Origin: Podarcis muralis
Taxonomy: Eukaryota
Length of the DNA stretch: 64,000 nt
Reading direction: 5' to 3'
NCBI RefSeq assembly: GCF_964188315.1
Contig: NC_135655.1
Span: 434,001-498,000 of the forward strand
Position numbers and translations under genes: made by a program. This document shows positions 11,201 through 45,751 of the stretch, piece after piece. The notes below the pieces were generated by a model. The model saw nothing but the letters and a program-made list of their open reading frames with translations, did no database searches and had not been told where the DNA came from. Position 1 is the stretch's first letter. Every line of letters begins with the position of its first letter.

Positions 11201-14200
11201 CAAGTGAGTAGCAAGTCTAGAGCCTCGCCCTTAAGTGGCTCTGTTCTCTGCCTGCCGCCCAGTCAGAGTCTCCATGGAAGAAGTGCGGAAACAACCCCAC
11301 AAAAGGCAAATCCAATTCCTGGCCCGAAGGGAGAAGTCCACCCTCTGCCAGCCCATGGAGAGAGGTGTGGGCCTGGTACTCACGGGGCTTGCTGGGGGCA
11401 CGCTTGGGCTGCTGCCCCTCCCCACCTTCTGGTCGGCGCTTCCTTCCTTTTGGCTTGCTGCTTAAGTCAAAGAAGAACTGGGGAGCCGGCTCCTCCTGCA
11501 GAGGAAAGGAGAAGGGCTGCTATCAAGCCACCATCTGGAGAGCAGACCGGGGAAGGGCTGCTTCCATGTCCCTTGAGGCCTGGCAATCCTTCCTCTGCAA
11601 CCCTGGGAGCAAAACTCTTTTCTGAAGGAGCTGCAAAGCGGGACTGGGGAGCCCCAAAATAGTGAGCAGCAGGACGAGCAGACAGGGCACAGCCTGCTGG
11701 AAGTTTCTTTCGGAGGAAACTTGGGAGATGATCCAAATTCAACTCTTGTGCAGTGCAGAGGGAGGATCAGTGGAACTCAGTGTTGTGCCAGGATGAAGGC
11801 TGTGTCTGAGCAAGCATCTCAGCTCCCCAGGTGGAACAACCTCCCCCCATGAGCTGTTTTTGGGGGTGCCGGGGGGGGGGGGGAGTGGCAGTCCTGTTGC
11901 GCATGAAGTGAATTCTGGCCAGGATCTTCTGGATGCAGAAAAGGGAATGGCTCCTTCTACTGACCATTCCCTGGCTGCTGAAGCCACCAGCTCCGCAACC
12001 TCCCTCCCCCACGTGCCTATCACCCGGCCGGCCAGAAAATAGTGGACACTTGGCTGGCCATAAGAGAGGAAGAGGATGTGGGACTGAATGGGTCCCCTTT
12101 GGCCTGATCCTGCTGCTGGGCTCTCCTTACATGTTCTTAAACATGCCAGATTTATATCCCACCTTCCTCTCAGGGCAGGAAACACACTAGTGATAAGCCA
12201 ATTAAAGTTTGTGAAGACAATTCCAATGCAGAGGCAAATTGGGGGGGGGGGCTCTGCTGGAAATGCACGTGTGCAGCCCCCGCCCCCAGCACCTTTTCAT
12301 CCGGCAGCATGTGGGCACAGCTCTTGCCGCCCCCAGGCCTTCGATAGGGGTTCTCCGTCACATCTTGCGGCTGCTTGACCAGCTCTGCAGGCTCCATGGA
12401 GCTCATTGGGAGGATGCTGAAGGCGTAGAGATACTGGAGAAAGCGAAGAGCAAAGAGAGTCAGGAGAAACACAAACAACTGACTTGTTTCCATCAAAGAA
12501 ACAGTGATTCCTTTGACAATTCTCATCAGAGGAGACAGGAGGGTCCCTGGAACTCTCTGTACCTTCCTCTTGTCGGAATTGCCGACCCCGGCCAAGGCGA
12601 TGAACCTGCTGACATGCTGGGCTGCCTCCTGGAGAACCGTGTGGTTCCTGCAGAAGAGAAGAGTGAGGCCACTTCCAGCAGGAATCAGAGAAACCAAAGA
12701 AGTGCCATGCTCAGGTCAACATGGAATCTGGACAGAGTTCAGCTTCTTCCAGAGCAGCTCAGCAAGTCACACATTGAAAGCCTCCAGGGAAGGAGATTCC
12801 AAAAGTCCCATGCTGAAAGGTGTCCGGCTTCACAGCACCACTTTCCCGTTATGGGAGGGGCACGAGATGGGCTACAGGTGGAACCATCAATGCAGAACAA
12901 ATTTGGAATTCTATAAAATCCCAAAATATCAGGGTAGCAAGCAGATTCCCCCTCTGCCTCTCCAAGAGGACTCAAGGCAAAGAAATTGGTTGGAGAATTT
13001 CAAGAGGCCACTTATGCACAGCAATAGTTATCATATAAATAATAATAATAAACAATATTCCTCCCTGGCCTAATGCATGGGACTGCATCAACACAGAGAC
13101 ACCAGCCAGTCAGCAAACTGCGATCCCAGGCTCTGCGTACCTGTAGGGAAGTCTTTCGTAATAGACCTTTTGCAGGGCGGCAAAATGGTACCGTGGTTTC
13201 AGACTCGCAGCTAGTAAAGACACCAGGCCGGAGCCACATTTCTTAGTGTCTATGTCACCCTGTTTAAAACACAAACACACATATTTTGTTTCACATTTCT
13301 GTGGATTTGTTAGCAGCCCAAAGAAAGAAAGTCCCCCTCTGCCCATGTTTGCGAACTGCAGAAGGAAAGGATTGTTTTCTTGGGGAAAGAAAACCTGCTT
13401 CCTAGAAAGCCTCTCCCTCCAGCACAGCCCCCTCCACATCTGGGCCAGGCTGCTGAAAGGCTGTCTGGCTGCCATGGTAAACAGCTCACCTGTGGAGGTC
13501 TCTGAAGGGGGCCTCGTGCTGCACCCCCCTTCGTCTGATCTCAGGCTGGCGCCTGGTGGCTTCCCCATGGTGGCCCCAAGCCTGAGAAGGGTCTCCAGCC
13601 AGAAGCACATCTGGCCTTCTGGCTCTCAATTTAATGGAGACTTTCTTCTTCTCTCAGACTTTTGAAACAATGACAGCATTTGGTTTCCACTCCCCATTAT
13701 AAACTTTTTGGAGATGATAACTGTTTACCACAGTTTTGGATATACTGTTATGCATTTCCTTTGTCCATTTTAGAAAGGGTTGGGCTATTTCCTGTTACTT
13801 TATTGTCACTGCAAAATTTATTTATTATGCCTGCCTCCCACTCTTGTAGTCAGCATTTATTTTCTTCCAACGCTGAGCCACATTTATCTATTGCCATCCT
13901 CTGGGTTCAGTATTGCATCACCACATATTTTTGTTTCAGTTGACTTTGTGGTATTCCTTACTGTTCCTGCTTTTCCAAAGTGGTGTATAATTTCAAGCAC
14001 AGATTTACAATCACCACCACCACCAATCCAGAATGTGGATTTCTATGGAACAGAACATACAAGCCCCTCCCACCCAAAACTGGATACTTACAGGGCTATT
14101 TCCAAAGATTTCTACTCCTTTTGGCCAAGAAGATGTCAGCAAGATGTCTACGCCTTTGAACTTAGAGGCAGACAGCAGGGAGGTTTTGAGATCAGTCACA

Positions 14201-17200
14201 TCCTTGGTGCTGAAGCAGTGGGCTGGAGTTGGTTCCCCCCCTGTGGACTCAGTCCCACTGAGGTAGGCAATCTGCAGCCCAGAGGCTCCGCTGAAGACCC
14301 CTTTACGTCCTACATGCACAGCACAGAACACAACGGTCAGGATGGAACCCTTTGACACACCAGCAACATGCCTGAAGACTGAACACAATTAATTCTACAG
14401 GGAATGAATGAATGAATGAATGAATAAATTTATTACGGTCATAGACCAGAAGAAAAGAAAAAAACATAAAAGGCAACAGTAGTTTACGAGGGAATGATGG
14501 TGTCAATTAAAAGTTGTAAAATTATACATAAAAACAATACACATATGCACACCCACCCACACACACACACATATATACTCATATATGCACTACAGTATAT
14601 GTATAGACTTAAAAAAGGGGGGGGCTTGTCCAGGGGTCAGATCTTTTACTTTTTTACAACTAATGCCCTCCGCTTGATCGCGGCCGCAGAAAACTTGGCC
14701 ACTTTCTGTGTTACTTCTGGGTTTTTATCTCCTAATAGGATTTTCAGCCGCTGAGATTCAGATCGACCTGGAAATTTCTGAACGATAGGGGAGATAAACA
14801 GTGACCTGATATCCCCGTAAAGGTCGCAGTGTAACAACACATGTGAAGCCGTTTCCACCTCCTTCAGACCACATGGGCAAACTCGTTCAGCATAGGGTGT
14901 GCCCTCGTATCTGCCCTTTAATAAGGCAGATGGCAGTACATCAAATCTGGTAAGGGTAAACGCCCGCCTATATTTTGCGATTTGTAGATCCAGCAAATAT
15001 GGGGTTAGATTAAACCCTTTTCCATAATCTTGGATAGCTGGGTATTTATCTATCTTGCTCATATGGTCCTGAAGCTCTACATCTCCTATTCGCTGGCTCA
15101 CCATCATTTTAGCCTTTTCAAAACCTGAGGCTATAAGTTCTTGTGGGGAAAGCCCCAGGCCCTTCAATTTTTCATAAAGCGACAATCTCCATTTAGACTG
15201 GAACGGGTCTAGTAGAGTCAATGGAGCCACTCCCACTGGGAAAAATATGAGTTTTAGCCAGAAGTGAATCTTCAGGATCCATATCCTGGCATTAATAGGG
15301 AGCTGACCTACCTCCAGCCTAATGGCAGTGTTGGAGACACAGGTAGGTAACCCTAGTAGGGAACGGTAAAATTTAGTTTGTACAGATTCCAGGGACTTGA
15401 GTTTTTGAGAATTAAATATCTGGGTGCCATACATCAATTGTGGAAGTATTTTTGCAACAAAGACCTGGGAGGCAGCAGGAACATATTGACCTCCTTTTCT
15501 GTAAAAGAATCTTATGATAGCTCTGAAAGATCTTTGCGCATTTACAATGGAATTCTTAATCTGATGGCACCAAGATCCCTTCTCATCGAAAATTATTCCA
15601 AGATATCTAAAAGATGTTACTTGCTCAATAGGTTGGTTATTAATTTTCCATTTATGTCGGAGTTTTCTCTTGGAGAACACCATAATTTTTGATTTAGTGT
15701 AATTTATTATTAGGTGTTCAGCTTCGCAATACTCTGTAAGAGCTCGTAAAAGTTTTCTTAGACCCACACAAGAGAAGGAAATAAGTGCCGCATCATCTGC
15801 GTACAAAAGGACTGGGATTGGTGTATTATTTAAGTTTGGGGAATGAGTACTTGCTTCCTCCATCTTTCCGACTAAGGAGTTTATATAGTAGTTAAATAGA
15901 ATAGGGGCAAGAACACAGCCTTGCTTGACACCATGGAAACTTTGGATTTCCTTTGATAAGTTCCCATAACGGTCGCATCTAACACGGATCCGAGTATTTT
16001 CATGTAGTCTACGGATAAGAAGCAAAAGACGTCTATCGATGTTTGTGGCATTTAATTTCTCCCAAAGTCTGTGCCGGGGTATCAAATCGAAAGCTGATTT
16101 GAAATCTATAAAGGCTACATAGAGAGAGCCTCCTTTCTTTGAGGTGTATTTCTCCACTAGATGTTGCAATACCAGTCCTTGGTCTAGAGTTGATCTATGT
16201 GCCCTGAAACCAGCCTGGGCTTCCTTTAGGATGTGCTCCTGTTCCAGCCAGTCCGCAAACTTTTCACGTAAGTGAGTTGCATAAAGTTTGCTAATGATGC
16301 TTAAGAGACTGATTGGTCTGTAATTGGCTGGATCAAGTTTACAGCCTTTCTTGAATATGGGAACGATGATTGCCAATCCCCAGTCCTCTGGTATTATTGC
16401 TGTTTGATCTATGCTGGTGAAAAGGGTGGCAAGGACTGGGGCCCACCAGTCAATATTGGCTTTGAGAAGCTCAGGAGAGATATTATCTGCTCCCGGGGCT
16501 TTTCTGTGTTTGAGTGCCTGAATAAGCCTCCTAATCTCCGCAACCGACACCGGAGGCCACTCATCACCTGCCGCACACTGTATTAGTGGCTGTGTCAAAG
16601 GCAGAGCTGAATATGAAGATTGGAAAAATGCCTCCCAAGTCCCTGCAGGTATAGTATACTCCACTTCTGAGGAAGTAGATCGCACTCCATTTGCTACCAG
16701 TCTCCAGAAGGTGGCCGAATCTCTCTCTCTGGATGCATCTATTAGGCATTTCCATTCTCTTTTCTGTGCCAGGAGTTTTTTGTTTTTGATCAAAATTTTA
16801 TAATTTCGTTTATCTTCAAACCAGCCCGTGGGGAGTTGGGGTAAATTGGCAGATCTATAATTCTTGTATTTTTTCAGTAAGTTTAGCTTCATGTCCTGAC
16901 ATTCTTGATCAAACCAGGGTTTGGAGTTTTTATATACTGAGGATTGCCTACTTGGCCTGTTCCTTTTTTCCTTCAGGGAATCTTGAAGGAGTGAAATTAA
17001 CTCCTGAAATAAATTTATCTTTAATTCATGGCTTGAGGAAGTTATAAGGTTTTCTCTCTTAGTGAGGAGTTCCTTTGAGCATAGCCTACTTGAAATTTCC
17101 TTATGCAGTTCATCTGTCCATCTGATACGCGAATATCTGAGCTCCAAAGCTGTAGGGCTCGAATGCTCGATTTTCTCAGCGCAGGATAAATCCTTTCCCG

Positions 17201-20200
17201 CAGCTACGAGTGCACTTAATGGCAGATGGTCACTGTCTAAGCGCTCCTCCACTTTGCATTCCAGAACTTTGTTTTGAAGATCATACGACACGATTATATA
17301 GTCAATTGTGGAGGCGCCATTGTTAGATATAAATGTGAATTCTCCGACCTTCTCCCCCTCTGTACGGCCATTTAGTATAACCAAGTCCAACTTGTTGACC
17401 AAGTGTAATAGGCATAAGCCGGCATAATTGCAGCCTTTATCCTTTGAGATTCTAGCTGGTATTGGGTGGGTTTCCTCTATAATGGGGACTGTTTCGTGGA
17501 AATGGGCATACAAAGCCTCATCAGATTGTCCAGTTCTGGCATTTAGGTCGCCTGCCACCACTACAGAGGCATCAGGAAATTGATTTGATAGTTTGTCAAG
17601 ATACTGTTCTAACTGAGCCCAAGTATTTCTTATCAATCTTTTCTCTCTTTGTGGGGGTAGGTATACGTTAATCAGCAGCAAGCTGTGGGTTCTCCACTGT
17701 ACTTGCACAGCTGTGGCCAGATGGTCTAGTGGGTCTAGTTTTTTAAATATGGCCCTTAGCCTTGTTGAGATTAAAGTAACTAACCCACCTTTAACTCGCC
17801 CCCCTCTAGTACTTAAAAGACCTGGGAGGGAGAACGCAGAAAAACCATTTAACTCCACTTCACTTGTGCTCCAGGTCTCCTGGAGAAACACAATGTCATG
17901 TCTCTGGATATATTTAGCAAAGGATTGGTCAGAAACCCTCTTTTGCCAACCTGCAATATTCCAAGTTAGCAAGGCAAGGTTGCACGTTGTCTTGCCAAAA
18001 ATTGATCTTAGTCAATTTGCCTTTGAAAGATTTTTTGGGCCTATCTTTTTATCTGTTGGTTGGATTTCATTCATTTTGGCAATGTCCATAGATGTATTAT
18101 CGCCCAGGTACTCAATGGAATCAGTTGAAGGGTGCAGCGTGCTAACATTAGTGATCAGTACTCCTTTTTTTGGCGAATCTACCTTGAGGTGTTCTATTTG
18201 ACTGATACCAAGTTCATCCTCATCCAGGTATCTCATGCTGGTCCAAGAGCGCGTTGTGGTTGTCATAGGGATGGTTTCCTTCTTAGATGGTAGATTGTTG
18301 CTGTCCCTTACGCACTGTGTTAGATCTGTTGCTGTCAGGTTTATCTCTGCAGCTGCAGAGGTATTATAAGGGTAGTCTTTCATGGTTGCCATAAGGATGG
18401 TTTCCTTCTTAGATGGTAGTTTATCCCTTGCGCACTGTGTTAGATCTGTTGTTAACAGGTTTATCTCTGCAATTGCAGAGGTATTATAAGAGTAGTCTTT
18501 CATGGGGTCTGTCTTGGCTTTTTCAGAGAGGTTCTCTTTCTTTAATTGGTCCGTTGCCGGTTCTTTCTCTCTTACTTTTTCCTGAGCATTCATCTCTGTT
18601 AGCTTATTTCTAAGGGTCTCCAATCTTCTCAAGATCTCAGATTGGGCAAGGAAAGGCAACAATCCAAACTGATTTATTAATGCCTTTTCTTCTGGATAGA
18701 AGTTATCCGTCCCCTCATTAGGCAGTCTCATCTCCTGTCTTAGTTTCAAGGACCCTTGCTCAGTATGTTCCAGTTTGTCTTTTGAGTGTCCTCTCTCCTC
18801 CTTTGGTTTACAAGTAAATCTTATCTCAGCTGTCGTAAACTCATCAGGAAACAATTTCAAACATGTGCTGTTTTCAAAAAATCTTGTTACCGTTATCCTT
18901 TTCTTTAACAGCAAATGTCTTGATCTATATATATATTTAGCCAAGTTTTGATCTTTGAAGGAGGCAATCACTCGCAGAGAGTATCCATTGTAGAATATGA
19001 AATCTACTGAGGTAATGTCATTTAATTTTATTTTCCCTGGCAGCATATCATCTAAAGTATTCACAAAATGCACCGAGCGTTCTTCCTGTGTAAGGAAGCC
19101 CTTTGGCTTCGGGTAGTTAAGAAAAGCTAACTTCCTATCTGCCAACATCAGTTTCCATCCTTTATCCTGGGGCAAGTCTTGCCCTGCTACTGGCTCATCT
19201 TGAGATCTGCCATAATCAATGGTATGGGGTGAGTCTTCTTTAATATTTATGGATCCTTGGGGTTTCAGCATAGAGCACCCGGGTAGTGATTCCGTTTCCT
19301 CACTTGTTTTGTTAGGCAGCAATGATGTTTCTTTCAAAGACTTCAGCTGGATCTTTTTTCCTGGATCCACACTGTTGTTCTCTCTGCTGCCATGTATAGC
19401 AGGTTTGTTAGAGTTTGTTTTTGATTTTGTTGGAATCAGCTTATATAGTCTTTTCCAGCATACTTTACATGCACGTCGGTTTGTAACAGATTTCCTTGCA
19501 GTTTTTATGTTCTTACTTTTCTTTTTAGTTTCAGCTTTCTTCTTATGGGATCTCTTACTGATGCCTCGCTTCTTTTGATTTACTTCGATAGGAAATTCAG
19601 TTTTAGGGACAGATACATACAACCCTATGTCCTTTCCTTGGTGTAAATGATTTTCCGCTGCTGATCCTTGTGTGCACTTGCTGGTTGCTGGTTGCTTTGT
19701 ATATTCTGGCTCTTGAGGGGTGGTTGGTGGATCAACACCGTGAAATTCTGAGCCTTTAGCTTGGAGGGGATAATTTTCCACTAATGTCAGGAGCAGCCCA
19801 TTTGTTATTGTTAAGTATTTTTTCATAGCTGCCAGATCCAGATTTATAGAGAGCAGCCAGTCCTGAGGATAGCAGTCATTGTTTTCCGTCTGGGAGCCCA
19901 TAGATGAAGTCTGGGATTTCTGGGAGTTTCGGGTTTCTTCCTGTAGCTCTGAAGATAATATCTCAGCCAAGGCTATTTCATGGGCCAGGCTCATTGTATT
20001 TCTATTTTGGTTGTTATTCTCCGTGTCCTGTATTCCTCTAGAGAAGGATGAGTGATCTTGAGCAGCAGAGGGAAAAAGAAGAGCCTCATCCTGCTTCAAC
20101 TCAACCATCTCAGCCATCTTTTGCTCATTTCCATTTCCATTTCCATTCTCGTTGTCCCTTGTATGTAAAAAGTATTGCGTGATTTTACTCTGTTTCTCAT

Positions 20201-23200
20201 AACACTCCTGGAACAATGGGCTTGTCACTATCCCCAGGTCCCTACGTTTCTTTCTAGTAAGTACCATTTGTAAGTCTTTGTTACCAATCAGGGTTATTCT
20301 TCCTATTTCAAAAACTATGTCTCTTAGGAAGTCGGAAGCTCCACCCAGCTATAGGCTAAGGTCCAAATTGAGGCAAGATTTGGGATAGCTGTTTGTAATT
20401 TGTAATTTGATAGCTTATAGTTCAGAGCGTAACACGGAGTTGGCAATAAATCAGCTGTCACCCGTTTTCCTTATTGTCGGTCAGACTTGAGGAGCGTGGC
20501 AGCGCGGGGAGCAAACCCTCCGGACATCAAGATAACAAGGTAACAAAAGAGCTAAAAGGACTATTAAACTACTTAAAAACTCTGGAGGAGTTAAAATATA
20601 TTATAAAAGGGGTTTCAAAGGTTGGCTCGGTGTCGAGCCTGTTTAAAAAGCAGATTTAAGAACTTGCCTCAGATAACCTCCAGAACTCTGCAGCTAGTTC
20701 GGCGGCCATCTTCCCCCCTTCTTCCCCCCCAGGGAGAACCAGAGAGATCCGAGTTGGGTGTATATGCTGGAATTCTGATTTGTTCAAGAGACAGGGAAGG
20801 AGCCTCTCTGCCTTGTGCTGGAAAGAACTTTTCCCTGGCCAGTAAAAATTCCCAGTCTTTTCCCAGCCCCTGGTAGAGCCTGGCAGATGCCTGCATTATG
20901 ACCCATTCAATTCATGGGTCAGGTAGCTTGGCATGGAGTGGGGTGGGGGCTGAGTGAACAGGGGGAGAAACCTTGGGGAGCCCCACACCATCACCTTCTT
21001 GGGAGCATTGAGAGAGGTCAGAGGGGCACCATCCCTCTCCTCCAAACAAGAAGGCTGAAGATCAAAGATCTTTGTTCTCCACCAAAGAAGAGGCAGGTGG
21101 CAGCCGTGCTCCCAAGCCCAGACCCCAGCAAGGAAGGACCCAAGTGAGAATTCTCATTTGGCACAGTAACTTTCCATTTGGAAAAAGAAACAATTTCTGG
21201 TGGGGATCAGATAAAATCCACACCCTGCTAGGTTGAAGGAAATACAAAATATGGTTCCCACAGAGCCCTAAATTGGGGCCTCAAACCATGCCTGAGTCCC
21301 AAGAGCAGTCAGCTCCTCCTCCCCTCGTCAGCTTTTAGGTGCAAGCCTGAAACCTTTCTATTTGCCTGGGCTTTGGTGGTTCTTCACCTCCATTGTGGTG
21401 CTCATCTTTCAGTGGGCATGGGGAGGGATAGTCCTTTTTATTGGATTGTTGGACGAACAGTTTGAGGATTCTGTATGGTACATCATTTTAAATTTGGCTT
21501 TTAACTGATTTATCTCTCTGTAGTCTAAACCACAGAGCCTAGGGCTTGCCAATCAGAAGGTTGGCAGTTCGAATCCCCGTGACAGGGCGAGCTCCCGTTG
21601 TTCGGTCCCAGCTCCTGCTCACCTAGCAGTTCGAAAGCACGTCAAATGCAAGTAGATAAATAGGTACTGCTCCGGCAGGAAGGTAAACGGTGTTTCCGTG
21701 TGCTGCTCTGGTTTGCCAGAAGCGGCTTAGCCACATGACCCTGAAGCTGTCTGCGGACAAACGCCGGCTCCCTCGGCCTATAGAGCAAGATGAGCGTGCA
21801 ACCCCCGAGTCATCCGCAACTGGACCTAACGGTCAAGGGTAACTTTACCTTTATTTTTTTAAGAAGCTACTATCAGACGTTTTCCTCCTTCCTTTTAATT
21901 AAATGTAGTAAACAATAAGCATAAAGTTACCCAGGTAAGTGATGTTCTCCGCTAGTTCGCATCCGCTGGCATCTGGAAAACATTGTGCTGTTTCACTGTT
22001 GTTGGCACCCAAGACGTATGTCTGTATAGGAGCTGAGGGAGACAAAGCCACCATGGCCCAAATGAGATGAACTTTGCAGGGCTGTTATTTCTCGGTGATG
22101 GCACCCGCCCTGTGGAAGGCCCTCCCATCAGATGTCAAAGAAATAAACAACCATCTGACGTTTAGAAGACATCTGAAGGCAGCCCTGTTTAGGGAAGTTT
22201 TTAATGACTGATGTTTTAATGTATTTTTAATCTTTTGTTAGAAGCTGCCCAGAGTGGATGGGGAAATGCAGCCAGATGGATGGGGTATAAATTAATTAAT
22301 TATTATTATTTCTTTCTCCACAGACAATTCATTTCAGAGAAAGTGCTGGCTTTTGAAAAAGATATGACTGGGCACTGTGGTGTAGGCTAGAGAGAGAGTG
22401 AGCTTCCTACATGGAAAGGGGTCCTTCACAGGGAGAACAATGCAGATGTGTGACCCCACAGTGAAAGTCTGAAGGGCTGCAGCCCAGACACAGATCATCA
22501 CCTTGGCTGGAAAACAGCCTGAGGTGAGGGAGAGGGGCTTGGAGTCAGGGTTTGAAACGCCCATTGTTCTGGGCGCATTTTGTGAAAGGCAATTTCATTA
22601 GCATGAGCAGTTTCTGAGCTCTAGGTGCAGGAGTGTGCCTGAGATGTCAGATTAAAACTACAGAGTGGAAGGAGAGGAGGACCCTTTTCTGTCCCCCACT
22701 TCCAGCCACACTCTGAAGCCTGGAGAAGGGACCCTCATAAGAATATTAGGGGGGCGGGCAGGGGAAGCATGGCTTTGTTTTTTGCAGTCTACAGATGAGG
22801 ACTAGACCATGGGGGGAAAGCTGCAGTTCATTCATTTTCAGCTTTGTCTCAGCTCCCCGTTTTCCTGTCTCCTGCCACCTCGCCCCACCTTTCTTGGCTC
22901 CTGTCTGGTACGCCTCCCATTCTGGGTCGCGGGCCGAGCCGAAGAAGTTCCCGACGCACAAGAGGAGCTGCAAGAGAAGAGCAGGGGAGAGGGTCAGGAG
23001 GAGGCCCCGGAGGAGACTGGGCCGCGCCCGCCGCGGAGGAGACGAGGGGAAGGGGCGCCCTTACGTCGAAGGAGCCGCTCTTGCTCTGCGCCGCCTGGAC
23101 GCGGCTGTACAGGGAGCCCAGGCGACCCTCCACGTCCCCGCAGACCAGCCTGGAGGGGGAGAGAGAGAGAGAGAGAAGGCGCGTCAGGGGGGAGGAAGGC

Positions 23201-23286
23201 GGACGGAGCCCCGAGGAAGAGGAGGCGGAGGGGAGGCCGGCGGGGCCTGGCGGGACTCACACTCTCAGGGCACCGCCGGGCGCCAT
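7291..23286 (-). CDS. CWF19L1: CWF19-like protein 1 (spliceosome/lariat-debranching associated; calcineurin-like N-domain plus CwfJ C-domains), 14 coding exons
   Basis: Exons: 23261-23286, 23065-23149, 22889-22967, 21931-22032, 14092-14309, 13141-13259, 12563-12647, 12293-12433, 11384-11495, 10124-10203, 9517-9726, 8913-9032, 7795-7892, 7291-7453. All GT-AG with consistent phases. Motifs: [79 protein letters not shown]. Confidence 0.97.
8219..8265. repeat. (ATT)n microsatellite in CWF19L1 intron 12
   Basis: About 15 uninterrupted ATT units. Confidence 0.95.
9240..9380 (-). ncRNA. SNORA12: H/ACA box snoRNA candidate, probable SNORA12 orthologue, in CWF19L1 intron 11
   Basis: 141 nt, same strand as the host. 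5' hairpin GUGGCAG/CUGUCAC with upper stem GCCG/CGGC; hinge AGAGAG (imperfect H box); 3' hairpin GGAGG/CCUCC with upper stems AGCAG/CUGCU and GGGCUC/GAGUCC; ACA three nt from the end. The start GUUGUGG matches my recollection of human SNORA12, whose host gene is CWF19L1. Confidence 0.6.
10860..10990 (+). mobile_element. L2-type LINE 3' tip with (TTA)n tail
   Basis: gccgcccagagtggctgg...cagatgggcaaggtataaataa then ttattatt; same tail family as 22060-22310, 26487 and 37214. Confidence 0.6.
14646..18011 (-). CDS. LINE ORF2: apurinic-type endonuclease, reverse transcriptase and C-terminal Cys/His knuckle (no initiating AUG)
   Basis: EN motifs [34 protein letters not shown] motifs [41 protein letters not shown]. 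Knuckle [16 protein letters not shown]. The frame is open from 18011; the track's start at 17972 is a TTG. Confidence 0.95.
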   Translation of the reverse strand, partial: LRSIFGKTTCNLALLTWNIAGWQKRVSDQSFAKYIQRHDIVFLQETWSTSEVELNGFSAFSLPGLLSTRGGRVKGGLVTLISTRLRAIFKKLDPLDHLATAVQVQWRTHSLLLINVYLPPQREKRLIRNTWAQLEQYLDKLSNQFPDASVVVAGDLNARTGQSDEALYAHFHETVPIIEETHPIPARISKDKGCNYAGLCLLHLVNKLDLVILNGRTEGEKVGEFTFISNNGASTIDYIIVSYDLQNKVLECKVEERLDSDHLPLSALVAAGKDLSCAEKIEHSSPTALELRYSRIRWTDELHKEISSRLCSKELLTKRENLITSSSHELKINLFQELISLLQDSLKEKRNRPSRQSSVYKNSKPWFDQECQDMKLNLLKKYKNYRSANLPQLPTGWFEDKRNYKILIKNKKLLAQKREWKCLIDASRERDSATFWRLVANGVRSTSSEVEYTIPAGTWEAFFQSSYSALPLTQPLIQCAAGDEWPPVSVAEIRRLIQALKHRKAPGADNISPELLKANIDWWAPVLATLFTSIDQTAIIPEDWGLAIIVPIFKKGCKLDPANYRPISLLSIISKLYATHLREKFADWLEQEHILKEAQAGFRAHRSTLDQGLVLQHLVEKYTSKKGGSLYVAFIDFKSAFDLIPRHRLWEKLNATNIDRRLLLLIRRLHENTRIRVRCDRYGNLSKEIQSFHGVKQGCVLAPILFNYYINSLVGKMEEASTHSPNLNNTPIPVLLYADDAALISFSCVGLRKLLRALTEYCEAEHLIINYTKSKIMVFSKRKLRHKWKINNQPIEQVTSFRYLGIIFDEKGSWCHQIKNSIVNAQRSFRAIIRFFYRKGGQYVPAASQVFVAKILPQLMYGTQIFNSQKLKSLESVQTKFYRSLLGLPTCVSNTAIRLEVGQLPINARIWILKIHFWLKLIFFPVGVAPLTLLDPFQSKWRLSLYEKLKGLGLSPQELIASGFEKAKMMVSQRIGDVELQDHMSKIDKYPAIQDYGKGFNLTPYLLDLQIAKYRRAFTLTRFDVLPSALLKGRYEGTPYAERVCPCGLKEVETASHVLLHCDLYGDIRSLFISPIVQKFPGRSESQRLKILLGDKNPEVTQKVAKFSAAAIKRRALVVKK
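18012..20267 (-). CDS. LINE ORF1 protein (751 aa)
   Basis: True ATG at 20267, open to TGA at 18014-18012. Has a heptad-like segment, a basic KKxK-rich region, a possible RRM-like block (LAFLNYP...LRVIASF...ITVTRFFE) and a C-terminal tandem duplication. Domain calls are tentative. Confidence 0.85.
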   Translation of the reverse strand: MVLTRKKRRDLGIVTSPLFQECYEKQSKITQYFLHTRDNENGNGNGNEQKMAEMVELKQDEALLFPSAAQDHSSFSRGIQDTENNNQNRNTMSLAHEIALAEILSSELQEETRNSQKSQTSSMGSQTENNDCYPQDWLLSINLDLAAMKKYLTITNGLLLTLVENYPLQAKGSEFHGVDPPTTPQEPEYTKQPATSKCTQGSAAENHLHQGKDIGLYVSVPKTEFPIEVNQKKRGISKRSHKKKAETKKKSKNIKTARKSVTNRRACKVCWKRLYKLIPTKSKTNSNKPAIHGSRENNSVDPGKKIQLKSLKETSLLPNKTSEETESLPGCSMLKPQGSINIKEDSPHTIDYGRSQDEPVAGQDLPQDKGWKLMLADRKLAFLNYPKPKGFLTQEERSVHFVNTLDDMLPGKIKLNDITSVDFIFYNGYSLRVIASFKDQNLAKYIYRSRHLLLKKRITVTRFFENSTCLKLFPDEFTTAEIRFTCKPKEERGHSKDKLEHTEQGSLKLRQEMRLPNEGTDNFYPEEKALINQFGLLPFLAQSEILRRLETLRNKLTEMNAQEKVREKEPATDQLKKENLSEKAKTDPMKDYSYNTSAIAEINLLTTDLTQCARDKLPSKKETILMATMKDYPYNTSAAAEINLTATDLTQCVRDSNNLPSKKETIPMTTTTRSWTSMRYLDEDELGISQIEHLKVDSPKKGVLITNVSTLHPSTDSIEYLGDNTSMDIAKMNEIQPTDKKIGPKNLSKAN
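21523..21851 (+). mobile_element. Sauria SINE, 5'-truncated
   Basis: B box GTTCGAATCCC, conserved cctagcagttcgaaagcac...gcaagtagataaatagg core and a (TTTACC)-type tail. Confidence 0.9.
22060..22310 (+). mobile_element. L2-type LINE 3' fragment
   Basis: gcacccgccctgtggaa...agacatctgaaggcagccctgtttagggaag...cccagagtgg...ggtataaat then (ATT)n; matches the ends of the longer L2 copies. Confidence 0.75.
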
Positions 23287-23441
23287 CGCTCTCCCGCGCG
23301 CTTCCTCTTTCCGGCGGGAGGGCACTTCCGGCTGGGGGGGCGGTGCGTCGCCCAAAGTCCTCCGGCCCCCTGGGAAACGGGGAGGCGCTTCTGCGCAGGC
23401 GCCTCCCGAGAGAGCGAGAGCGAAGGAAGGAAGCCAGCGCC
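23287..23441. promoter_or_regulatory. CpG-island bidirectional promoter shared by CWF19L1 and ERLIN1
   Basis: Divergent ATGs at 23286 (-) and 23442 (+), 155 nt apart, inside a CpG island (~22900-24100). ETS/GABP-type ACTTCCGG at 23324-23331 and TTTCCGG at 23308-23314. Confidence 0.8.
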
Positions 23442-26400
23442 ATGTCCTCCTCCGGCCTGGGCGGGGAGGGGGACGCCCGTCGCTGGCCCGGCCCGGCTCC
23501 TCCGGGGGCGCCGCGCTCCCTCCCCGCCCGCTGGGCCGGCGCCGGGGCCAGTCTGGCCGGGGCGGCGGCGGCGCTGCTCCTGCTGCTGGGCGCCTCCGTC
23601 CACAAGGTGCAGGAGGGCCACCTGGCCGTCTATTACAGGTGAGGCGGGCAGAGGGAGACCCCCGGGACCCCCCCCCCCGACCCCTCCGCCTCTCCGCTCA
23701 GCCCCCTCTCTCTCCCCCCAGGGGCGGGGCGCTGCTGGCCACCCTCAGCGGCCCGGGCTACCACCTCATGCTGCCCTTCGTCACCACGCCCAGAGCCGTC
23801 CAGGTCTGTATCTCCCCTCGGCAGCTGGGCCCGGCAGGGAAGGGGGCCTCTGCCGACCCGCGGGGGGCTCCTGCCCGGGAGGAGCAGGCGGGACCTCCCC
23901 CCCCCCCCGCAGCCCTGCTGCTGCTGCTTCTGGGCTTGGCAGGGACCCTCCGCCCTCCCGGGGCTGCTCAGTCTCTCTTCTGTTTCAGACAACGCTGCAA
24001 ACGGACGAGGTGAAAAACGTGCCATGCGGGACCAGGTGGGTCGCCCTTCTTGTGGCTCTTGCTGTGCCGGGAGGAGCACCTCAGGCTGGGTGCGGCGGAG
24101 CCTGAGCGGCATTTTCTGGGCTGGAAGCACCCAGCACCCCGTCAGTGGCTCTGCTTCTTGGCTGCTCAGTGAGATGTGTTGGGCAGGATTCTGCCAGGAA
24201 TCTCTTCCGGAACCAAAGGGCTCAAAGGCAGTTTGCTTAATGGAAGCTGCAAGCAGCCAACAGGCTCATCTTGGGAAAGATGCTCTCCTGTGGGGCTGCT
24301 GGCCTTTCTCTTGCGGGGGGGGGGGGGCTAGTCAGGTGTATGGCAGGTGCCCCAGTCTGGCTCTTGGCAGCTGCTGGACACAGCCAGGCTACCTAGTTAT
24401 CTTTCAGTTGTAGCAGTGTGAAGGCAAAGGCGGGAGCTGGGGTTGCCTCTAGAGTCCTGTGTGTCTTCATTTTCTCTTGCATGTTGCTCAGTAGAGGTGT
24501 AGGTTAACCTTCAGTCTGCACCAATAGCAGTGCAATAACTGTGGGACCTGCATCTGTTCTAATCACTCCGCTGGCGGCTTCATTGCCACCCGCTCCGTGA
24601 CACAGGCTGTGAGGAACCGCAAAGGCTGTTGTCGTCATTGGCTCTGGCGGGAGTTTGTGTTGTGGAGGGAAGTGCTGCTGGTGCAGCAGCCCAGCTGGGC
24701 AGTCTGTGCCACTTGCTCCTGTGCCCATTGTTGAGGGCCAAAGGTTATCTGGGGTCTCCTGGAGCAGGAAGCTGCCTCAGACCAGCCCCCTGCCCACCCC
24801 CTGCTCTCTTGCACTTAAACTCTGTGCACGCTGTCTCTGCCTCTCTCCCTCTTGGTGCAGAGAAAGGCTTCAGGAATCTGAGTTTGCCCCAAGGGGTGGC
24901 ATAGCTCATTTTCCTCCTTTTTCCCTTGCAGTGGAGGAGTCATGATCTACATTGATCGGATAGAGGTGGTGAACATGTTGGCTCCACATGCAGGTATGGC
25001 TCCTTTCCCTGTGCCTGAAAGCAAATCCTGGAGGAAGGAGAGAAGCAGAGCCCCTCGGAGACAGGGGCGGGTGGGCTCACCAGCAAGAGAGCTGAGGGAG
25101 GTGGAGGGTTGGTGGGCCTGGAAAGGGGCTTGCAGAGGGAAGTTGGAGGGGCTCATGTTGCTGAAAAGGAGGGTTTCCTGTTGACTGCTCCTGACTTTTG
25201 ATGTTGGCTCAGTAAGGATTGCTAGGCTGATGGAAAACAGCCAGGGGTGGGTCCGGATTCTGATGCTCTTCAGTGTTGTTATTGGTGACTGGCATGAGTG
25301 AGACTTACACCCTCTGAAGGAACTGATTTTGGTCCAGCCGAAAAGGCTAAATTGCTTCTGAATCTGTCAGAGTCAAAGGCGTGTTTGTCTGTGTGGGGCA
25401 GGCTGAGCAGGCAGAGAGACTCTCCTTGGGCACCTGCAGGGGAGGCAGTGGGCACAGCTGTTCTGGTGGGGGGAGTGGCTGGGGCCGCAGGAGGAGGGGG
25501 AAGAGAAGGGAAGTGGGGTCCGGAAGGGCACCAGCTGGAAAAGGAGCGCAGGACAGGGCCTCTTGGGGATGGCAGAGGGTGAGCTCTGAGAAGAAGCTTC
25601 GCAGCTGGGCTTCTAGGAAAAAGCAGAGACTGACTCCCGCTGGGGCCTGGCTCTCACCACAGTCCCTGCGAGGCTTTGCAGGATTTTGGGAACTGCTGCT
25701 CACTGACTTGTAAAGGTGGACTTCTGTATAGAAGCCTTCAGTTGCAGTTGACATAGGAAGAAAAATGTTATCAGTCTCCTGTAACATCACATTGTAATGT
25801 TTTCATTAGAGCTGCTCACTTTGGAACTGCTGAGTAAAAATTAGGACGTTTGCTCATTAGGCCACTGCCATCTTTTTGGGGCGGCAGCCTTAAGCACACT
25901 TTCTTGCAAGTAAATCACACTAAAACCAGTTGGACTTCCTTCTGAGTAAATATAGCTAGGATCCGGCTTCAGATGTGTGGACAATCTTTTATACTTACAA
26001 GTCATATTCAGTTGTTAGATAGAAATTGTGATTAATTCAGAGAAATAGCTCCTATGTGTTCAAGAAACGCTGAGCACCAGCATCTTGAATTTGCCTGACA
26101 GGTGAGAGAGCACCAATGGCATCAGAGTGACTTTCCGGTGACACTTCTGCTGTTCCTTTTCTTAGTATACGATGTTGTGAAGAACTACACTGCAGATTAT
26201 GACAAGACCCTCATTTTCAACAAAGTCCATCATGAGCTCAACCAGTTCTGCAGTGCCCACACCCTCCAGGAGGTCTACATTGAGCTCTTTGGTAAGCAGG
26301 TGACGGGGGGGGGGGGGGCTTGCTTTTGCTGGTACCGTTTCCCCAAAGCACATCCAGTGAATTGGAAATGGAGCAAGGATGTTTACACAGTTCCATCCCT

Positions 26401-29400
26401 CCTCTTCTGGGACAGCATGGAAGAGGAAGCCCACAGAGATCTTGTGCCTCTTGCTCCGTCAGGACTTCGTCCTCCAGCTCTCACCTGATGATGATGATGA
26501 TGATATTTTCTCATATATACACCACCCATCTGGTTGGGTTTCCCCAGTCACTCTGGGCAGCTTACAACATACCTAAAAAATAATAAAAAGATCATTCCTT
26601 AAAAACTTCCCTTAACAGTGCTGCCTTCAGATGTCTTCTAAAAATCAGATAGTTGTTTATTTCATTGACTTCTGGAGGGAGGGTGTTCCACAGGGAGGGC
26701 ACCACTACCGAGAAGGTCCTCTGCCTGATTCCCTATAACTTTGCTTCTTGTAGTGAGGGAACAAGCAGAAGATCCTTGGAGGAGGACCTTAGTGTCCGTG
26801 CTGAGCAATGGGGGTGGAGACGCTCCTTCGGGTATACTGGACCGAGGCCGTTTAGGGCTTTAAAGGTCAGCACCAACACTTTGAATTGTGCTTGGAAACG
26901 TACTGGGAGCCAATGTAGGTCTTTCAAGACTGGTGTTATGTGGTCTTGGAGGCCGCTCCCAGTCACCAGTCTAGCTGCCACATTCTTTATTCATTGTAGT
27001 TTCCAAAGGTAGCCCCACGTAGAGTGCATTGCAGTAGTCCAAGCAGGAGATAACCAGAGCATGCACCACTGGTGAGACAGTCTGCGGGCAGGGAGGGTCT
27101 CAGCCTGCATACCAGATGGAGCTGGTAGACATCTGCCCTGGATACAGAATTGACCTGCGCCTCCATGGACAGCTGTGAGTCCAAAATGATTCCCAGGCTG
27201 CGCACCTGGTCCTTCAGGGGCACAGTTACCCCGTTCAGGACCAGGGAGCCCCCCACCCCCGTCCTCCAAGAACAGTACTTCTGTCTCGTCGCGGTTCAAC
27301 CATCCGCCAGCTGCCTCCAGACACTCACACAGGACCTTCACCGCCCTCACTGTTTCTGATTTGAAGGAGAGGTAGAGCTGGGTCTTCCTGGTCCTCCTGA
27401 GGTGCTGGATCAGGAGGAATGCAGGAGCCTTTTGTGTGGTTGGACCTGCTCCCATTTCAGAATCTGCCCTCCTGTTTCCTTAGATGTCTGGCAGGCAGGG
27501 TAAGAAGCTGCGTGACCAGACTGGGATGGAGTGCTTGGGGAATTTGGGATTTCTGAAGGAGGAAGAATATTTTTAGGAGAGAGATGCAGCTGGCAGCTGG
27601 GCATGTGTAGAGACACCCACAGAGCTGTTTCAAATATTCTGCTTCACATTAAGCACCACAGAATTACTCTTGGTAGTGAGAACAATATTTATTATGGCAT
27701 CCTGATATTTTGCCAGCTGTTCTTGGGCTTGTCTGGCAGATCCGATTCTCTGCTTTTGGGAATCTTCGACTGGCTTGCCTGAGGGCCCCGTCCACAGCTG
27801 GGCAGTTGGCAGGGCAGCCTGGTGTCTTTGTTGACTCTTGCCTGTGGTTGGCACAGGGGGTGCATGTGGCTCAGTGGCGCAACATCTGCGGTGCATGCAG
27901 AATTCCTGTGGGTCAAGTCCTGGCAGGGTCTCCAGTGAGACTGACCTGGAGCCATTGCGGCTGGTCAGTGCAGGCAGCACAGAGCCAGCTGGAGAAATGC
28001 TGGGACTCTCTTTGGCTGATGCTGCCTCTCATCTTTTCTCCCCCTAATCCTAGATCAAATAGATGAAAATCTGAAGTTGGCCCTGCAGCAGGATCTGAAT
28101 GCCATGGCTCCAGGTCTCACCATCCAGGTAATGCCCCCCTTCCCTTTTCCCTTTCCTGGCTCTGGGTGGATTTAGGACTAGCCCGCTTCTCTGCGTGGGG
28201 ATGCAGGTTGAGGAGGGAGAGCTTCCCTCTGTCGAAAGTGGAAACTTGCCATATTGCTGGCTGGGGGGTCCAGCCCAGCAGGACGAGGCCAGATGCAGGG
28301 GCCGCTTCCTTTCTTTGCAGTAGAGGAGCTTGCACTTGGGGGGCAGCTGCAGTCTTATGAGGTCTGCTGGCTTTTGTGTGTGTGCAGGCAGTGCGTGTGA
28401 CGAAGCCCAAGATCCCAGAAGCCATCCGAAGAGATTTTGAACTTGTGTGAGTATTTGCTGAGAGCATCAGAGAAAGGTCAGGCCAAAGCACAGGGCCAGG
28501 GAGGGGCTCTAGGCTGGTGTTTCAGGATTCCCACGGGGGCCAACCAAACGTCTCTTCTGGGAAGCCCTGGCAGGCAGGCTGGACCTGAACTCCACCAGTT
28601 TTCACCTCCCCTTGGGCTCCTCAGCCCCTGCTCTCCTGAGGCATCTCCTCCGTCCGGCAATGAAGGTAGTACACAGCCACAGCGTGGTTTCGTAGACATG
28701 GACAGCCGCCTCCTCTGTGGATTTGTGCCCACCCTTTTCTCAGAGGTCTCTCCCCATTCTGTGCAGCTGATGCAAAGGCCAGGGTGGGAGAAGCGCCTCT
28801 CAGGCAGAGTGTCTCTGCTTGCCAGGCCCCTGCAAAGAGGAAAGGAACAACCAAGGCCGTTGCTGGATTGCTCTGGGCCATGCCTGAGATTGGCCAGGTC
28901 TGGCCCTTCTATGGCGGAGGGGCAGGCATATGAAGAGAGAGATGGTTATTCGGGGGGTTTGGGGCTTAGATTCTGGCATATGGAGAAGTAGCTGGCCGTC
29001 AGTTGGACTGCTGTAAACTAGCAGAAGATGGCAGGAGTTGGTGCCTGGAGGTATTGGGCAGAGCAGGCCAAGAGACGTGGCTGGAAGGCTGAAGGAAAAA
29101 CATCTTGGGCAGCTCATTAACTCTTCAGGGCCAGTGACAATCTGAAGTGCAAATGTTTATCTTTTGGGTTTCCCCCCCCAAACACGCCATGTATCTGAAT
29201 GAGAAAACATTCTGTCTAGTGAAGGGAAGGGCCAAGATCCAGTGCTGGAAAAGGAAACGCGTGAGTCCGGAGCAGGGCAAAAGCTGGAGGGGATTTAAAG
29301 GCCAAGCTCCTGCTTTGCGCAGCACCTTGGGATGCAAACAGCAGAGGGGGGGGTCAGCCACCCCCTCCCAGGGCCCCTTCCTTCCCAGGGCGGGGGGGGG

Positions 29401-31669
29401 GGGAGGGCAGCTGGGGCCCCCCACCAGGGAGGAGCAGGGAAGGACCTTTCCTGTTTTGCCATTCAGGGAAGCAGAGAAGACGAAGCTCCTGATAGCGACC
29501 CAGAAGCAGAGAGTGGTGGAGAAGGAGGCCGAGACGGAGAGGAAAAGGGCCGTCATAGGTAACCAAACTCCCTATGGGAGAGTCTCTCTCTTCCCCCCAC
29601 CCCTGGTCCCTTATCTTCCCTTGGGACAGAAAATGGGGGGGGGGGGAGGCATGTGTGGCACGAAGACCTTAGATTCTAGGCTTCTGGCTGGATCTAGACA
29701 CATCCAAAAAGCATTTCAGGAAAATGCATTGCAAACCTCATGAAAAACGGAACTCCACAGTGCCATATTTGTTTCATACAATTTATATACCATGTGATTG
29801 TTAAAAAACCCTAAAGTGGTTTATGAAATGCATAAAATGAAAAAACAGTAAAAGCAGTTAAAAACAGCTATTTAAAACAATTAGATAAGAATTGAAACCA
29901 GCAGTAAGCTAAAGATGGATAAAACATCTTACATTTTTTGGGCAGGCTTGTCTTAAACAAAATATTCTTAGCAGGCGCCAAAAAGGCCACAGTGATGAAG
30001 GCACCTGCCTGGTGTCAATAGACTAGGAGTTCTGAAGTGTGGAGGCTGCTGCAATAAAAGATCAGTTTCTGGCAAATGCGGAACGAGAATCCTGTGGCAG
30101 CTGTGTAGCTTATTGCTTGACATGGCAAACAGTTGCTAGCGCCTGGTTGCAAAGATAGCCTGGAGCAAGAGACTCTGGAGAGAGGCCTGTGGCGACCACA
30201 ACTTCACTTCTAGCAGAGGCCAGGGTGTCTTCTTTCCCCAGGCCCAGCAGGCCTGAGAAGAGGACGTGGCCTGTGAGGTCCCAGTGACGGTGTGTCGCAA
30301 GCCAGGCCTGCATGCCCTTCGGGGCTCTTGGTTGCCTGCTGCAAGAGCTCTGTTGCCACGGATTTCCTCTTGGGAGTCCTGGAGCGCTGGCTGTGGGGCT
30401 CTGGAGCATTGGTGCCCTTGGCTGCTGGTGTTTGACTGACTGCTCTCTCCTCACAGAAGCAGAGATGGCGGCTCAGGTGGCAAAGATTCATTGCCAGCAG
30501 AGGGTCATGGAGACTTTGATGGAGAAGCAAATTTCTGAGCTTGAAGGTAGCTGTGCAGCCCTTACCTCTGCCTCCTCCCTGCCTGCAAAGCAGAAGCTGT
30601 GAGCCAAATAGCCCCGCGTCTCTGGCTGTGCTACCCACAAGCATTCTGCCTGCAGCCAAGCAGAGCACTGGGACTTTGCCTGTCTTCTGGGGTCTGAGAA
30701 GCCAAGTCCGGGTGCAGCCTGGGTGTCTGGCCACAGTTGGGCATTGATGCCTTGTGGGTGCCACTGGGGGTGGCCCAAGGCAGGGGCTCCTTTGCTCCAG
30801 ATTCACTTGTGTTCACTGGCTCAGATTGCTTGAGCCTGAAAAACAGATCTGCAGAGCCTGCACAAGCCATGTGCCTCATGGAGAAGGGGTGTGTGTGTTT
30901 GTGTGTGTTTGTGTGTGTGTGTGTGTGTCTTGTCCCCAAAGCCTTGTGTGCAAAGCATAATCCAGGTCCCCAAAGCCAAGGTGGGCAGGGAGGAGGCAGG
31001 CAGAAAAGGGGCTGCTTTCTGCTCTGGTGCATCCTCTGGACCGTGGGGTTGGGGCTGTTTATTATCTTCATCCTGGGTGGAACCAGTGCTTGAGTGGGAT
31101 GTTGCTTTGCTGTGGGTTTCCAGGGCCGTCTCCCCATGGGGCGCCCTGGTGATCCTCCTTTCTCCTGAGCTGCCTTCCTTGGTCTCTTCCCAGATACGGC
31201 TTTCTTGGCGCGAGAGAAGGCGAAGGCTGACGCCAACTTCTACATGGCCCAGAAAGCAGCTGCCTCGAACAAGGTGGGTGTTGACTCTTGGCTGCCCGTG
31301 TGCGTGCTGGGGGTAGATCCTGAGCCATCCTCTGGGATGCTCATTTGGAAGGATGGCTGCACTGTATCCCGTGGGTGCTCATGGCACAGAAATCCTTGCC
31401 TCATTCGTTCTCCTCCTCTCTCCCCCTGCCCTGTGCAGCTGAAACTGACACCTGCCTTCCTGGAGCTGATGAGGTACCAGGCCGTGGCCTCCAACAGCAA
31501 GCTCTACTTTGGCAGCAGCCTCCCCCCGAACCTCTTTCTGGGCTCTTACGCCTTTGAGCCGGCAGAGGCGAGGACTGCCAGAGACAGCCGTCTCCTCTCC
31601 AAAGCAGGGAAGCTGCGCCTCCAGCACCGGGGAGGCGGGGCCAGCTCTGCCACGGCAGCTGCCACATGA
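23442..31669 (+). CDS. ERLIN1: ER lipid raft-associated protein 1 (SPFH domain), 11 exons
   Basis: Exons: 23442-23638, 23722-23803, 23989-24035, 24932-24993, 26166-26291, 28054-28127, 28388-28446, 29467-29558, 30457-30546, 31194-31273, 31439-31669. All GT-AG. ERLIN1-type rather than ERLIN2-type residues: [40 protein letters not shown]. The start codon is inferred. Confidence 0.95.
26487..27385 (-). mobile_element. L2-clade LINE, 5'-truncated (~0.9 kb), ERLIN1 intron 5, antisense
   Basis: RT C-terminal peptides [15 protein letters not shown] and [26 protein letters not shown], with frameshifts; L2 tail plus (TCA)n. Confidence 0.88.
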
Positions 31670-32000
31670 TGCCTCTGCTGCACCAGCCATCGTGTCTGCG
31701 CCGTGGTCTGAAACTGCAACTCACTGGCTGCCTCAGATCTGCCTTATTCAGGGCAGCACAAACCGTCCTTGAAGTTGTGTGGTCCTCCACAGCCCAAGGG
31801 CCAGCTTTCATGGGAGTTTTATGGCTGCTGCATCTGCCCCACAGAGGAGGGGTGTGGGGGGGGGTGCTCTGGAGGACCTCAGCCGTTAAGTCCGTGGAGG
31901 GTAGACTCTACCGCAGACCTCCTGTGAGGACAACTTTGACACAGCAAAAGTGTGGGGGGGGGGGATCTGATTTTACCACTGGTGCTTGCATGGTCCTGGG

Positions 32001-45623: not shown

Positions 45624-45751
45624 GGCCGCCATGGACCGGGAGGCGTCTCCCCGGCAACGGGGCCCCGGAAGCGCCGCGGCGGGAGAGGAAGCGGAAGCGG
45701 AAGAGAGAGAGAGACCCGCCTCTTCCGGCAGCGGGCGAGGAAAGCGGGAGG
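45624..45751. promoter_or_regulatory. CpG-island bidirectional promoter shared by TUBGCP2 and ZNF511
   Basis: Divergent ATGs 128 nt apart. X-box-like GTCTCCCCGGCAAC at 45645-45658, CCGGAAGC at 45665-45672 and tandem GGAAGCGGAAGCGGAAG at 45687-45703. Confidence 0.8.

Follow-up and report, generated by a model that had tools for sequence, protein, structure and literature searches.

The 64,000-nucleotide stretch of Podarcis muralis DNA analysed here (contig NC_135655.1, positions 434,001 to 498,000, hereafter the window) carries on its minus strand a young long interspersed nuclear element (LINE), family A, whose two open reading frames (ORF1 and ORF2) lie in one frame and are separated only by a UGA followed by CUA. 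Comparison with related elements suggests that the ORF2 enzyme is made as a minor, 1873-amino-acid (aa) ORF1-ORF2 fusion by programmed readthrough of this UGA-CUA, a reading to which a probability of about 0.75 is given. Judged by its conservation among diverged families, the in-frame UGA-C junction is a real, selected feature.

The ORF1/ORF2 junction of family A

Read on the minus strand, ORF1 ends in GCA AAT TGA (18014-18012) and the same frame goes on as CTA AGA TCA ATT TTT GGC AAG ACA ACG TGC AAC CTT GCC TTG CTA ACT to TGG AAT ATT GCA GGT and thus into the endonuclease, just as had been proposed in an earlier sequence-only reading of the window. Two stop-to-stop frames, 20348-18012 with 778 codons and 18011-14646 with 1121 aa, follow each other directly in the same phase. 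The features of the junction are the following.

18012..18014, minus strand: ORF1 stop TGA, candidate readthrough codon
18009..18011, minus strand: CTA completing the type II UGACUA context
17964..18011, minus strand: 16-codon linker free of Met, before the endonuclease motif W-N-I-A-G-W
16890..16892, minus strand: first ATG of the ORF2 frame (codon 374), beyond the endonuclease match (residues 15-262)

The methionine drawn at 17972 by the ORF-calling program is in fact a TTG (codon 14 of the ORF2 frame), and the first true ATG, at 16892, lies past the whole endonuclease; the sequence-only reading was right on both points. As this ATG comes after the endonuclease, ordinary initiation cannot yield a complete ORF2 protein (ORF2p). 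The fusion of about 1873 aa that had been envisaged agrees with the frames (751+1+1121), and the cross-family conservation of TGA and of C at +4 supports reading it as programmed readthrough.

A DNA search of the same genome retrieved 23 near-identical family A loci, 22 of which span the junction (L023 does not). All 22 have TGA-CTA and none has an ATG in the linker. Other copies might have had a sense codon at the stop or an ATG near 17975-18010; the former occurs neither in these copies nor in the 88 contexts described below, and the latter in no family A copy. As the copies are more than 99% identical, they exclude a copy-specific mutation and do not test selection. A copy-specific nonsense mutation is ruled out by the 22 TGA-CTA copies together with TGA in 87 of the 88 contexts.

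The hexanucleotides UGACUA and UGACGG define type II viral readthrough, exemplified by alphavirus nsP3/nsP4 (PMC13517186). Family A has UGACUA at its in-frame stop, in keeping with the earlier recognition of UGA-CUA as a readthrough context. A stop-start junction of the SART1 type is absent, as no ATG lies in or near the family A linker and the A-TGA overlaps of other families are out of the ORF2 frame.

The process can be viewed as follows. Most ribosomes would stop at the UGA and release ORF1p, and a few would insert a near-cognate residue at UGA-C and proceed into ORF2. Residues inserted at UGA by near-cognate decoding are Trp, Cys or Arg. Leaky termination would thereby yield a few percent of fusion and set a low ORF2:ORF1 ratio. 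More speculatively, the ORF1 part of the fusion may let it assemble together with ORF1p trimers on the RNA that encodes it, in the way Gag-Pol joins Gag, and a motif of ORF1p resembling a PCNA-interacting peptide (PIP) box may be linked to the enzyme by a long, flexible tether, possibly with later cleavage.

Conservation of the junction among diverged families

Related loci were collected by protein searches with three endonuclease queries, in which 150 of 810, 694 and 649 candidates, respectively, were scored. The junction set comprises 60 chosen stretches, 10 loci from the first protein search and the products of targeted searches. It defines 21 in-frame families, all from this one genome, with endonuclease identities of 24-77% and full ORF2 identities of 33-74% (11 compared). 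This count omits decayed or truncated loci (L088, L115, L116, L117), an interrupted copy of family S (L105) and family D (L026/L027), where foreign sequence is inserted after TGA-CAA; families M, N and O are treated separately. The damaged copies L074 (of H) and L100 (of J) still have TGA-CAA and TGA-CAG.

The ORF1 stop is TGA in all 21 families and the next base is C in 17. Among the other columns, only -2 (A in 17/21) and +9 (A in 14/21) stand out, the remaining positions from -15 to +18 reaching at most 11/21. No in-frame ATG precedes the endonuclease in 19 of the 21 representatives. The expectation that TGA-CTA and the Met-free linker would be conserved was thus borne out for the stop, for C at +4 and largely for the linker, and failed for the exact CUA, as the following 3' triplets indicate.

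CTA: families A, G, K, K2, K3
CAA: B, C, E, H, Q
CAG: J, S, T
CTG: F
CGG: L
CAT: P
CTC: R
AGC: I, I2
AAT: U, V

Known viral readthrough classes are matched by UGACUA (A, G, K, K2, K3), by UGACGG (L) and by CAR-YYA (H, CAAUUA; J, CAGUCA). As in type II sites, the stop and +4 base are kept beyond their flanks and the downstream frame is coding without a start of its own.

The terminal ORF2 stops of the 15 families with intact ORF2 served as control: 6 are TGA and 1 is TGA-C. The difference from the junctions gives Fisher p values of 5e-5 (TGA) and 2e-5 (TGA-C) or, after hand-collapsing to 8 deep lineages (TGA 8/8, TGA-C 6/8), of 0.007 and 0.002; the common ancestry of the families, all from one genome, makes these values overstate independence. 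The background rate of C after TGA is 152/746. The scrambled flanks beside a kept TGA-C argue against passive inheritance.

Across the 21 families, 88 distinct junction contexts, found by anchors on the flanks and not on the stop codon itself, include 87 TGA, one TAA and no sense codon. The junction was read at the nearest upstream in-frame stop, and whether a real ORF1 ends there was checked separately: 12 families have an ORF1 frame that stays open over 408-778 codons as far as the junction stop, and ORF1 homology in the junction frame is found in C, I2, K2, Q, U and V, weakly in L and T, and as local similarity only in K3. Linkers of 12-18, 25, 54, 64 and 66 codons all keep the ORF1 stop in the ORF2 frame. 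Near-cognate start codons share no common position among families, and E, G and T have none whatever.

Families U (L108/L141-L146) and V (L109/L149-L160) have TGA AAT AAG GTC in common after otherwise different sequence, and I and I2 share CCA CAA TGA AGC CAA, a possible non-C readthrough context like that of U and V. Locus L103 is an apparent chimera. Its ORF1 end resembles those of A, B, C and E, at 37-52% identity, and is followed by TGA-CAA and a 54-codon linker, and its ORF2 is only about 35% identical to theirs; there the junction signal apparently travelled with ORF1.

Sister families with a -1 overlap

In the sister families M, N and O, ORF1 extends past the start of the ORF2 frame and ORF2 occupies the -1 phase. 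The ORF2 frame of M and N offers no AUG that could be used. The heptamer U_UUU_UUA, which is the shift site of HIV (PMC5009743), lies in the right phase within the ORF1/ORF2 overlap of 15/15 N loci and 8/9 M loci. The ORF1 stops of M, N and O are in the non-leaky contexts TAA-A and TAG-A. In a quick IQ-TREE tree and in a FastTree tree, both with midpoint root, distant outgroups and no bootstrap, these families nest among the in-frame ones, so that readthrough looks ancestral and the -1 shift derived. The strongest argument for a fusion is that two recoding signals have the ORF1-ORF2 fusion as their sole common outcome. The loci with this arrangement (L063-L068, L090, L172, L174-L197) are candidates for programmed -1 frameshifting in a vertebrate LINE.

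Domains of ORF1p and the PIP-box-like motif

The following features were assigned to ORF1p of family A.

19773..19871, minus strand: long helix predicted by AlphaFold2, residues 133-165
18870..19154, minus strand: RNA recognition motif (RRM) domain, residues about 372-466; AlphaFold2 confidence (pLDDT) 84-95 in most blocks
18257..18505, minus strand: 120-bp tandem duplication in the low-confidence tail
20169..20192, minus strand: PIP-box-like motif, residues 26-33; sequence pattern, predicted PCNA contact only

In the model, the helix at 133-165 would correspond in position to the coiled coil of L1-type ORF1p. The best fold match of the RRM is human L1 ORF1p (VIA-align Z 8.9, root-mean-square deviation 2.3 over 86 residues), other RRMs reaching Z values of at most 7.6; the top 3 Foldseek rows are also L1 ORF1p (E 2e-3 to 6e-3). 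A helical pair is modelled at 525-567, and the tail 569-751, about 180 residues ahead of the stop, is modelled with low confidence and is likely disordered. The best ESM Atlas match to the ORF1 core scores 0.78 and is a lead only.

The residue Q26 of the PIP-like motif is invariant across 13 aligned ORF1s. With the general PIP-box consensus applied as a strict pattern, 10 of 17 ORF1 sequences, several of them partial, have a hit (0.14 expected), as against 0 of 17 ORF2 sequences (0.9 expected). Under a relaxed pattern, the motif is N-terminal in A, B, E, M, N and P and lies 23-32 residues ahead of the stop in F, G, H, J, R and S. Beyond the window, it occurs in ORF1 of L062, L065, L067, L069, L073, L075, L082, L095, L102, L104 and L107. 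For human L1, a PCNA contact on ORF2p was described first as a PIP box and later as a wrist motif, PUB (PMC10830420, PMC7617806). Since that contact was reassigned to a non-PIP motif, an ORF2 devoid of the PIP pattern is no proof that PCNA binding is absent. We infer that a fusion would tie the PIP-like motif and the trimerising part to the enzyme, and that this may be a reason for making it.

A broader proposal is that a whole vertebrate LINE clade follows Gag-Pol logic, with an obligatory ORF1p-ORF2p fusion (by ancestral UGA readthrough or a derived HIV-type -1 shift) that delivers the enzyme in cis to trimers of ORF1p and lends it the PCNA-binding motif located in ORF1p and not in ORF2p. 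This proposal is tentative and falls somewhat short of even odds.

RNA structure around the stop

In family A, a stimulatory stem 3' of the stop had been anticipated, and one structure of this kind is predicted.

17917..17996, minus strand: three stacked predicted hairpins from 16 nucleotides (nt) after the stop; family A only; z -3.07, 0/200 shuffles

No stem is common to the families, so that the expectation holds for family A and not for the clade: of 18 families folded over the 150 nt that follow the stop, only 2 reach a z of -2 or lower. A hairpin recurring over the W-N-I codons was rejected as stimulator, as its 166 pairs compare with 163 +- 5.5 in synonymous shuffles and the protein motif explains it.

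Weighing readthrough against other explanations

Besides the lack of a clade-wide stem and the shared descent of the families, several observations weigh against readthrough and fusion. The +4 base is A in four families (I, I2, U, V), one of the six U copies has TAA at the junction, and the linker contains Met in P, in U and in several V copies. Concerning the -1 route, the heptamer is imperfect in both readable loci of the O lineage, and the stems 3' of the slippery sites are weak (z 1.3 to -1.9, pseudoknots being outside the model), so that no stimulatory structure was found there. The V-F-L residues of the slippery site moreover belong to a peptide motif that ORF1 of U and V has as well; but, given these residues, the chance of U_UUU_UUA codons is 0.015 and 0.019 in the two families, which counts in favour of the site. 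A search of long database proteins with the ORF1 core as query, which is a weak test, gave none in which ORF1 and ORF2 are fused. Finally, human and rat L1 are described as making ORF1p and ORF2p separately via AUG-tolerant reinitiation (PMC2241872, PMC1965478).

Ribosomes might instead terminate and then reinitiate independently of AUG at or just after the stop, either as in L1 or by a stop-and-carry-on mechanism, with ORF1p and ORF2p as separate products. Such a restart would be helped if termination at UGA-C is slow, the ORF2 AUG of human L1 can be exchanged for any sense codon (PMC1965478, citing Alisch 2006), an AUGA stop-start overlap is found in the distant relatives L122 and L124, and a fused N-terminal extension of 751 aa is not seen in L1. 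Scanning reinitiation needs no shared frame, yet the frame is kept in 21 families with 10 linker lengths, and no start codon is common to them. The ATG of the A-TGA overlaps (I, J, K, L, S and others) opens another frame, which closes within a few codons in family I. The slippery-site route of the sister families, moreover, can only produce a fusion. Reinitiation is the main rival reading and is considered unlikely. Selenocysteine at the UGA would account for the use of this one stop in all 21 in-frame families. It would, however, be placed in an unconserved linker and not at a catalytic site, and the bias to C at +4 and the frameshift sisters fit leakiness better. No selenocysteine insertion sequence (SECIS) was matched in Rfam to E 5 over window positions 14300-20800, with models that can miss divergent elements, and this explanation appears highly improbable.

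It might also be that ORF2 is expressed from a spliced or internally initiated RNA and that TGAC is a branch point and not a translation signal. TGAC resembles the branch-point core, and yUnAy fits in 9 of the 21 families. Against this, the interval that separates the stop from the endonuclease lacks any YAG acceptor in A, B, E and U, and the acceptors of other families share neither place nor phase. No splice joint was seen in 28, 85 and 69 RNA reads or in 15 contigs, a coverage too thin to exclude a rare isoform. Among the sequencing runs listed as carrying the sequence, none is recorded as RNA, which has no bearing on expression. Splicing would moreover leave unexplained why ORF1 ends exactly at this in-frame TGA, and the idea is given very little credence. 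The same holds for the view that the junction has no programmed role and was either inherited without selection or produced by recurrent decay, such as loss of the CpG of a CGA codon in an ancestor with one ORF. The common ancestry of all families would be compatible with it, and so would two database entries, P0134 and P0136, in which ORF1-like sequence runs into the endonuclease without a stop. However, neither CGA nor any other sense codon occurs in the 88 contexts, the young, intact and recently multiplied copies are all TGA, and the flanking columns are saturated whereas TGA-C is not. Decay would also leave these elements, whose first ATG lies past the endonuclease, without a complete ORF2p by ordinary initiation. 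This explanation is therefore already largely refuted. P0134 is a Naja naja gene model that was perhaps spliced in silico; it is not trustworthy at the junction and was rejected as a fused protein. P0136, whose ENA contig is short, is possibly a single-ORF fusion of natural origin.

Relatives and known systems

A metagenome scan yielded 20 distant loci. Two of them from one sample (L123, L135) have an in-frame TGA-CTG followed by Met-containing linkers of 110 and 181 codons, the in-frame stop of L140 is TAG-G and its linker, of 13 codons, lacks Met, and, apart from the stop-start overlaps of L122 and L124, the other junctions are ordinary or unreadable. Several ORF2 strategies thus exist within one wider LINE group. 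No related loci were found in the prokaryote genomes and viral contigs searched.

Read-through was proposed from consensus sequences for the Group 3 LINEs of Paramecium tetraurelia (Guerin et al. 2017, PMC5405496). As described there, these are, like family A, LINEs with an apurinic-type (APE) endonuclease and a reverse transcriptase (RT) whose ORF1 and ORF2 are in one frame across a stop, and they have sister groups with a frame offset; they differ in forming a separate ciliate clade with a variant code and a +1 offset in the sisters. In Paramecium, UGA is the sole stop, so that stop identity carries no signal. The lizard clade, in contrast, has UGA-C among three possible stops and sisters with -1 slippery sites.

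Viral readthrough systems share with the lizard LINEs the stop and its 3' contexts and the production of the polymerase as a minor readthrough extension. The type I CAR-YYA context is reported to work across stops and hosts (PMC13517186), and some retroviruses of fish and frogs have A after the stop (UGAAGA, UGAAGU; PMC13517186), a UGA-A context shared by families I, U and V. Viral readthrough has, however, been measured and often relies on an extended 3' stem-loop, which some type II sites need and others do not, whereas the lizard families are known from sequence and share no stem; no element-encoded protease is evident in them. Retroviral Gag-Pol is similar in that one lineage uses readthrough (gamma/epsilonretrovirus) or a U_UUU_UUA -1 shift for fusing a structural RNA-binding protein to the polymerase (PMC13517186, PMC5009743). 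Unlike retroviruses, the lizard LINE is an element without long terminal repeats (non-LTR), with an L1-like RRM ORF1p and not Gag, and without protease, capsid or integrase; no pseudoknot was found, the folding having covered simple stems.

Mammalian L1 and silkworm SART1 are likewise bicistronic LINE RNAs with an L1-type ORF1p RRM and low ORF2 output (PMC5972666, PMC3894237, PMC2241872). In L1, unlike here, a spacer of about 60 nt with further in-frame stops and an AUG separates the frames and the proteins are separate (PMC5972666, PMC2241872), and SART1 uses a UAAUG stop-start that family A does not have (PMC3894237). The PIP-like motif lies in ORF1p here, whereas the PCNA contact of L1 is in ORF2p (PMC10830420, PMC7617806).

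The element and its surroundings

The remaining features of the family A element are as follows.

14402..20716, minus strand: full-length young APE-type LINE; ends set by aligning 7 other copies
20268..20716, minus strand: 5' untranslated region (UTR), beginning in a G-rich run
18012..20267, minus strand: ORF1, 751 aa and TGA; ATG at 20267
17226..17969, minus strand: APE endonuclease domain, PF03372, ORF2 residues 15-262, E 4e-14
15591..16352, minus strand: reverse transcriptase domain, PF00078, residues 554-807, E 9e-33
14826..14879, minus strand: C-terminal Cys/His motif CPCx9Hx4C, read from sequence
14646..14648, minus strand: ORF2 stop TAA followed by A, a non-leaky context
14402..14434, minus strand: AATAAA and (TTCA)n 3' tail

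The 7 other copies aligned are 98.8-99.6% identical; 6 have intact frames of 751 and 1121 aa and 1 is 5'-truncated. With an APE endonuclease and an RT in ORF2, dispersed copies, a 3' simple-repeat tail, target-site duplications and 5' truncation, family A has the characters of an APE-type non-LTR retrotransposon. The nearest solved protein to its RT is L1 ORF2p (E 9e-23). The CPCx9Hx4C motif is presumably a zinc knuckle. The 90% protein cluster of the family includes Podarcis muralis entries, and relatives are named from Rhineura, Pogona, Hemicordylus and Naja. The label RTE-X (RTEX), given to the family in the sequence-only reading, is provisional, as the trees contain unlabelled relatives only. 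No Pfam family matched ORF1, hence no SGNH esterase by Pfam. This esterase is described in ORF1 of some RTEX members, in an account that does not state it to be universal (PMC3905857).

A disproportionate share of the copies of many families lies on one 30-Mb contig (C20), as would be expected of a repeat-rich sex chromosome. Exon-like frames occur at window positions 12170-13625, 22800-31700 and 42450-46500, the LINE lying between the first two; from their translations, they presumably resemble CWF19L1, ERLIN, TUBGCP2 and ZNF511. In the single-cell run X19, 25 reads exit the element at 20539 into one other sequence, with a depth peak in the 5' UTR (window 20473-20541); these reads may come from a transcribed truncated copy, a host-LINE junction or a start region.

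Significance

How LINE ORF2 is translated is a long-standing question. Where they treat it, reviews give reinitiation, stop-start, internal ribosome entry sites and 2A, with two separate proteins (PMC5972666, PMC5009743, PMC3894237). A search of the open-access literature, to which subscription papers and Repbase reports do not belong, gave no account of a vertebrate LINE that uses readthrough or -1 frameshifting, which does not prove absence from print. If the readthrough reading is true, the retroviral fusion solution would extend to non-LTR elements, in a vertebrate clade, and the ORF2 annotations of this clade would begin at false starts. The elements would also be sensitive to host termination factors and to readthrough drugs, and they would offer a natural series of about 20 readthrough contexts together with intact young elements for direct tests.

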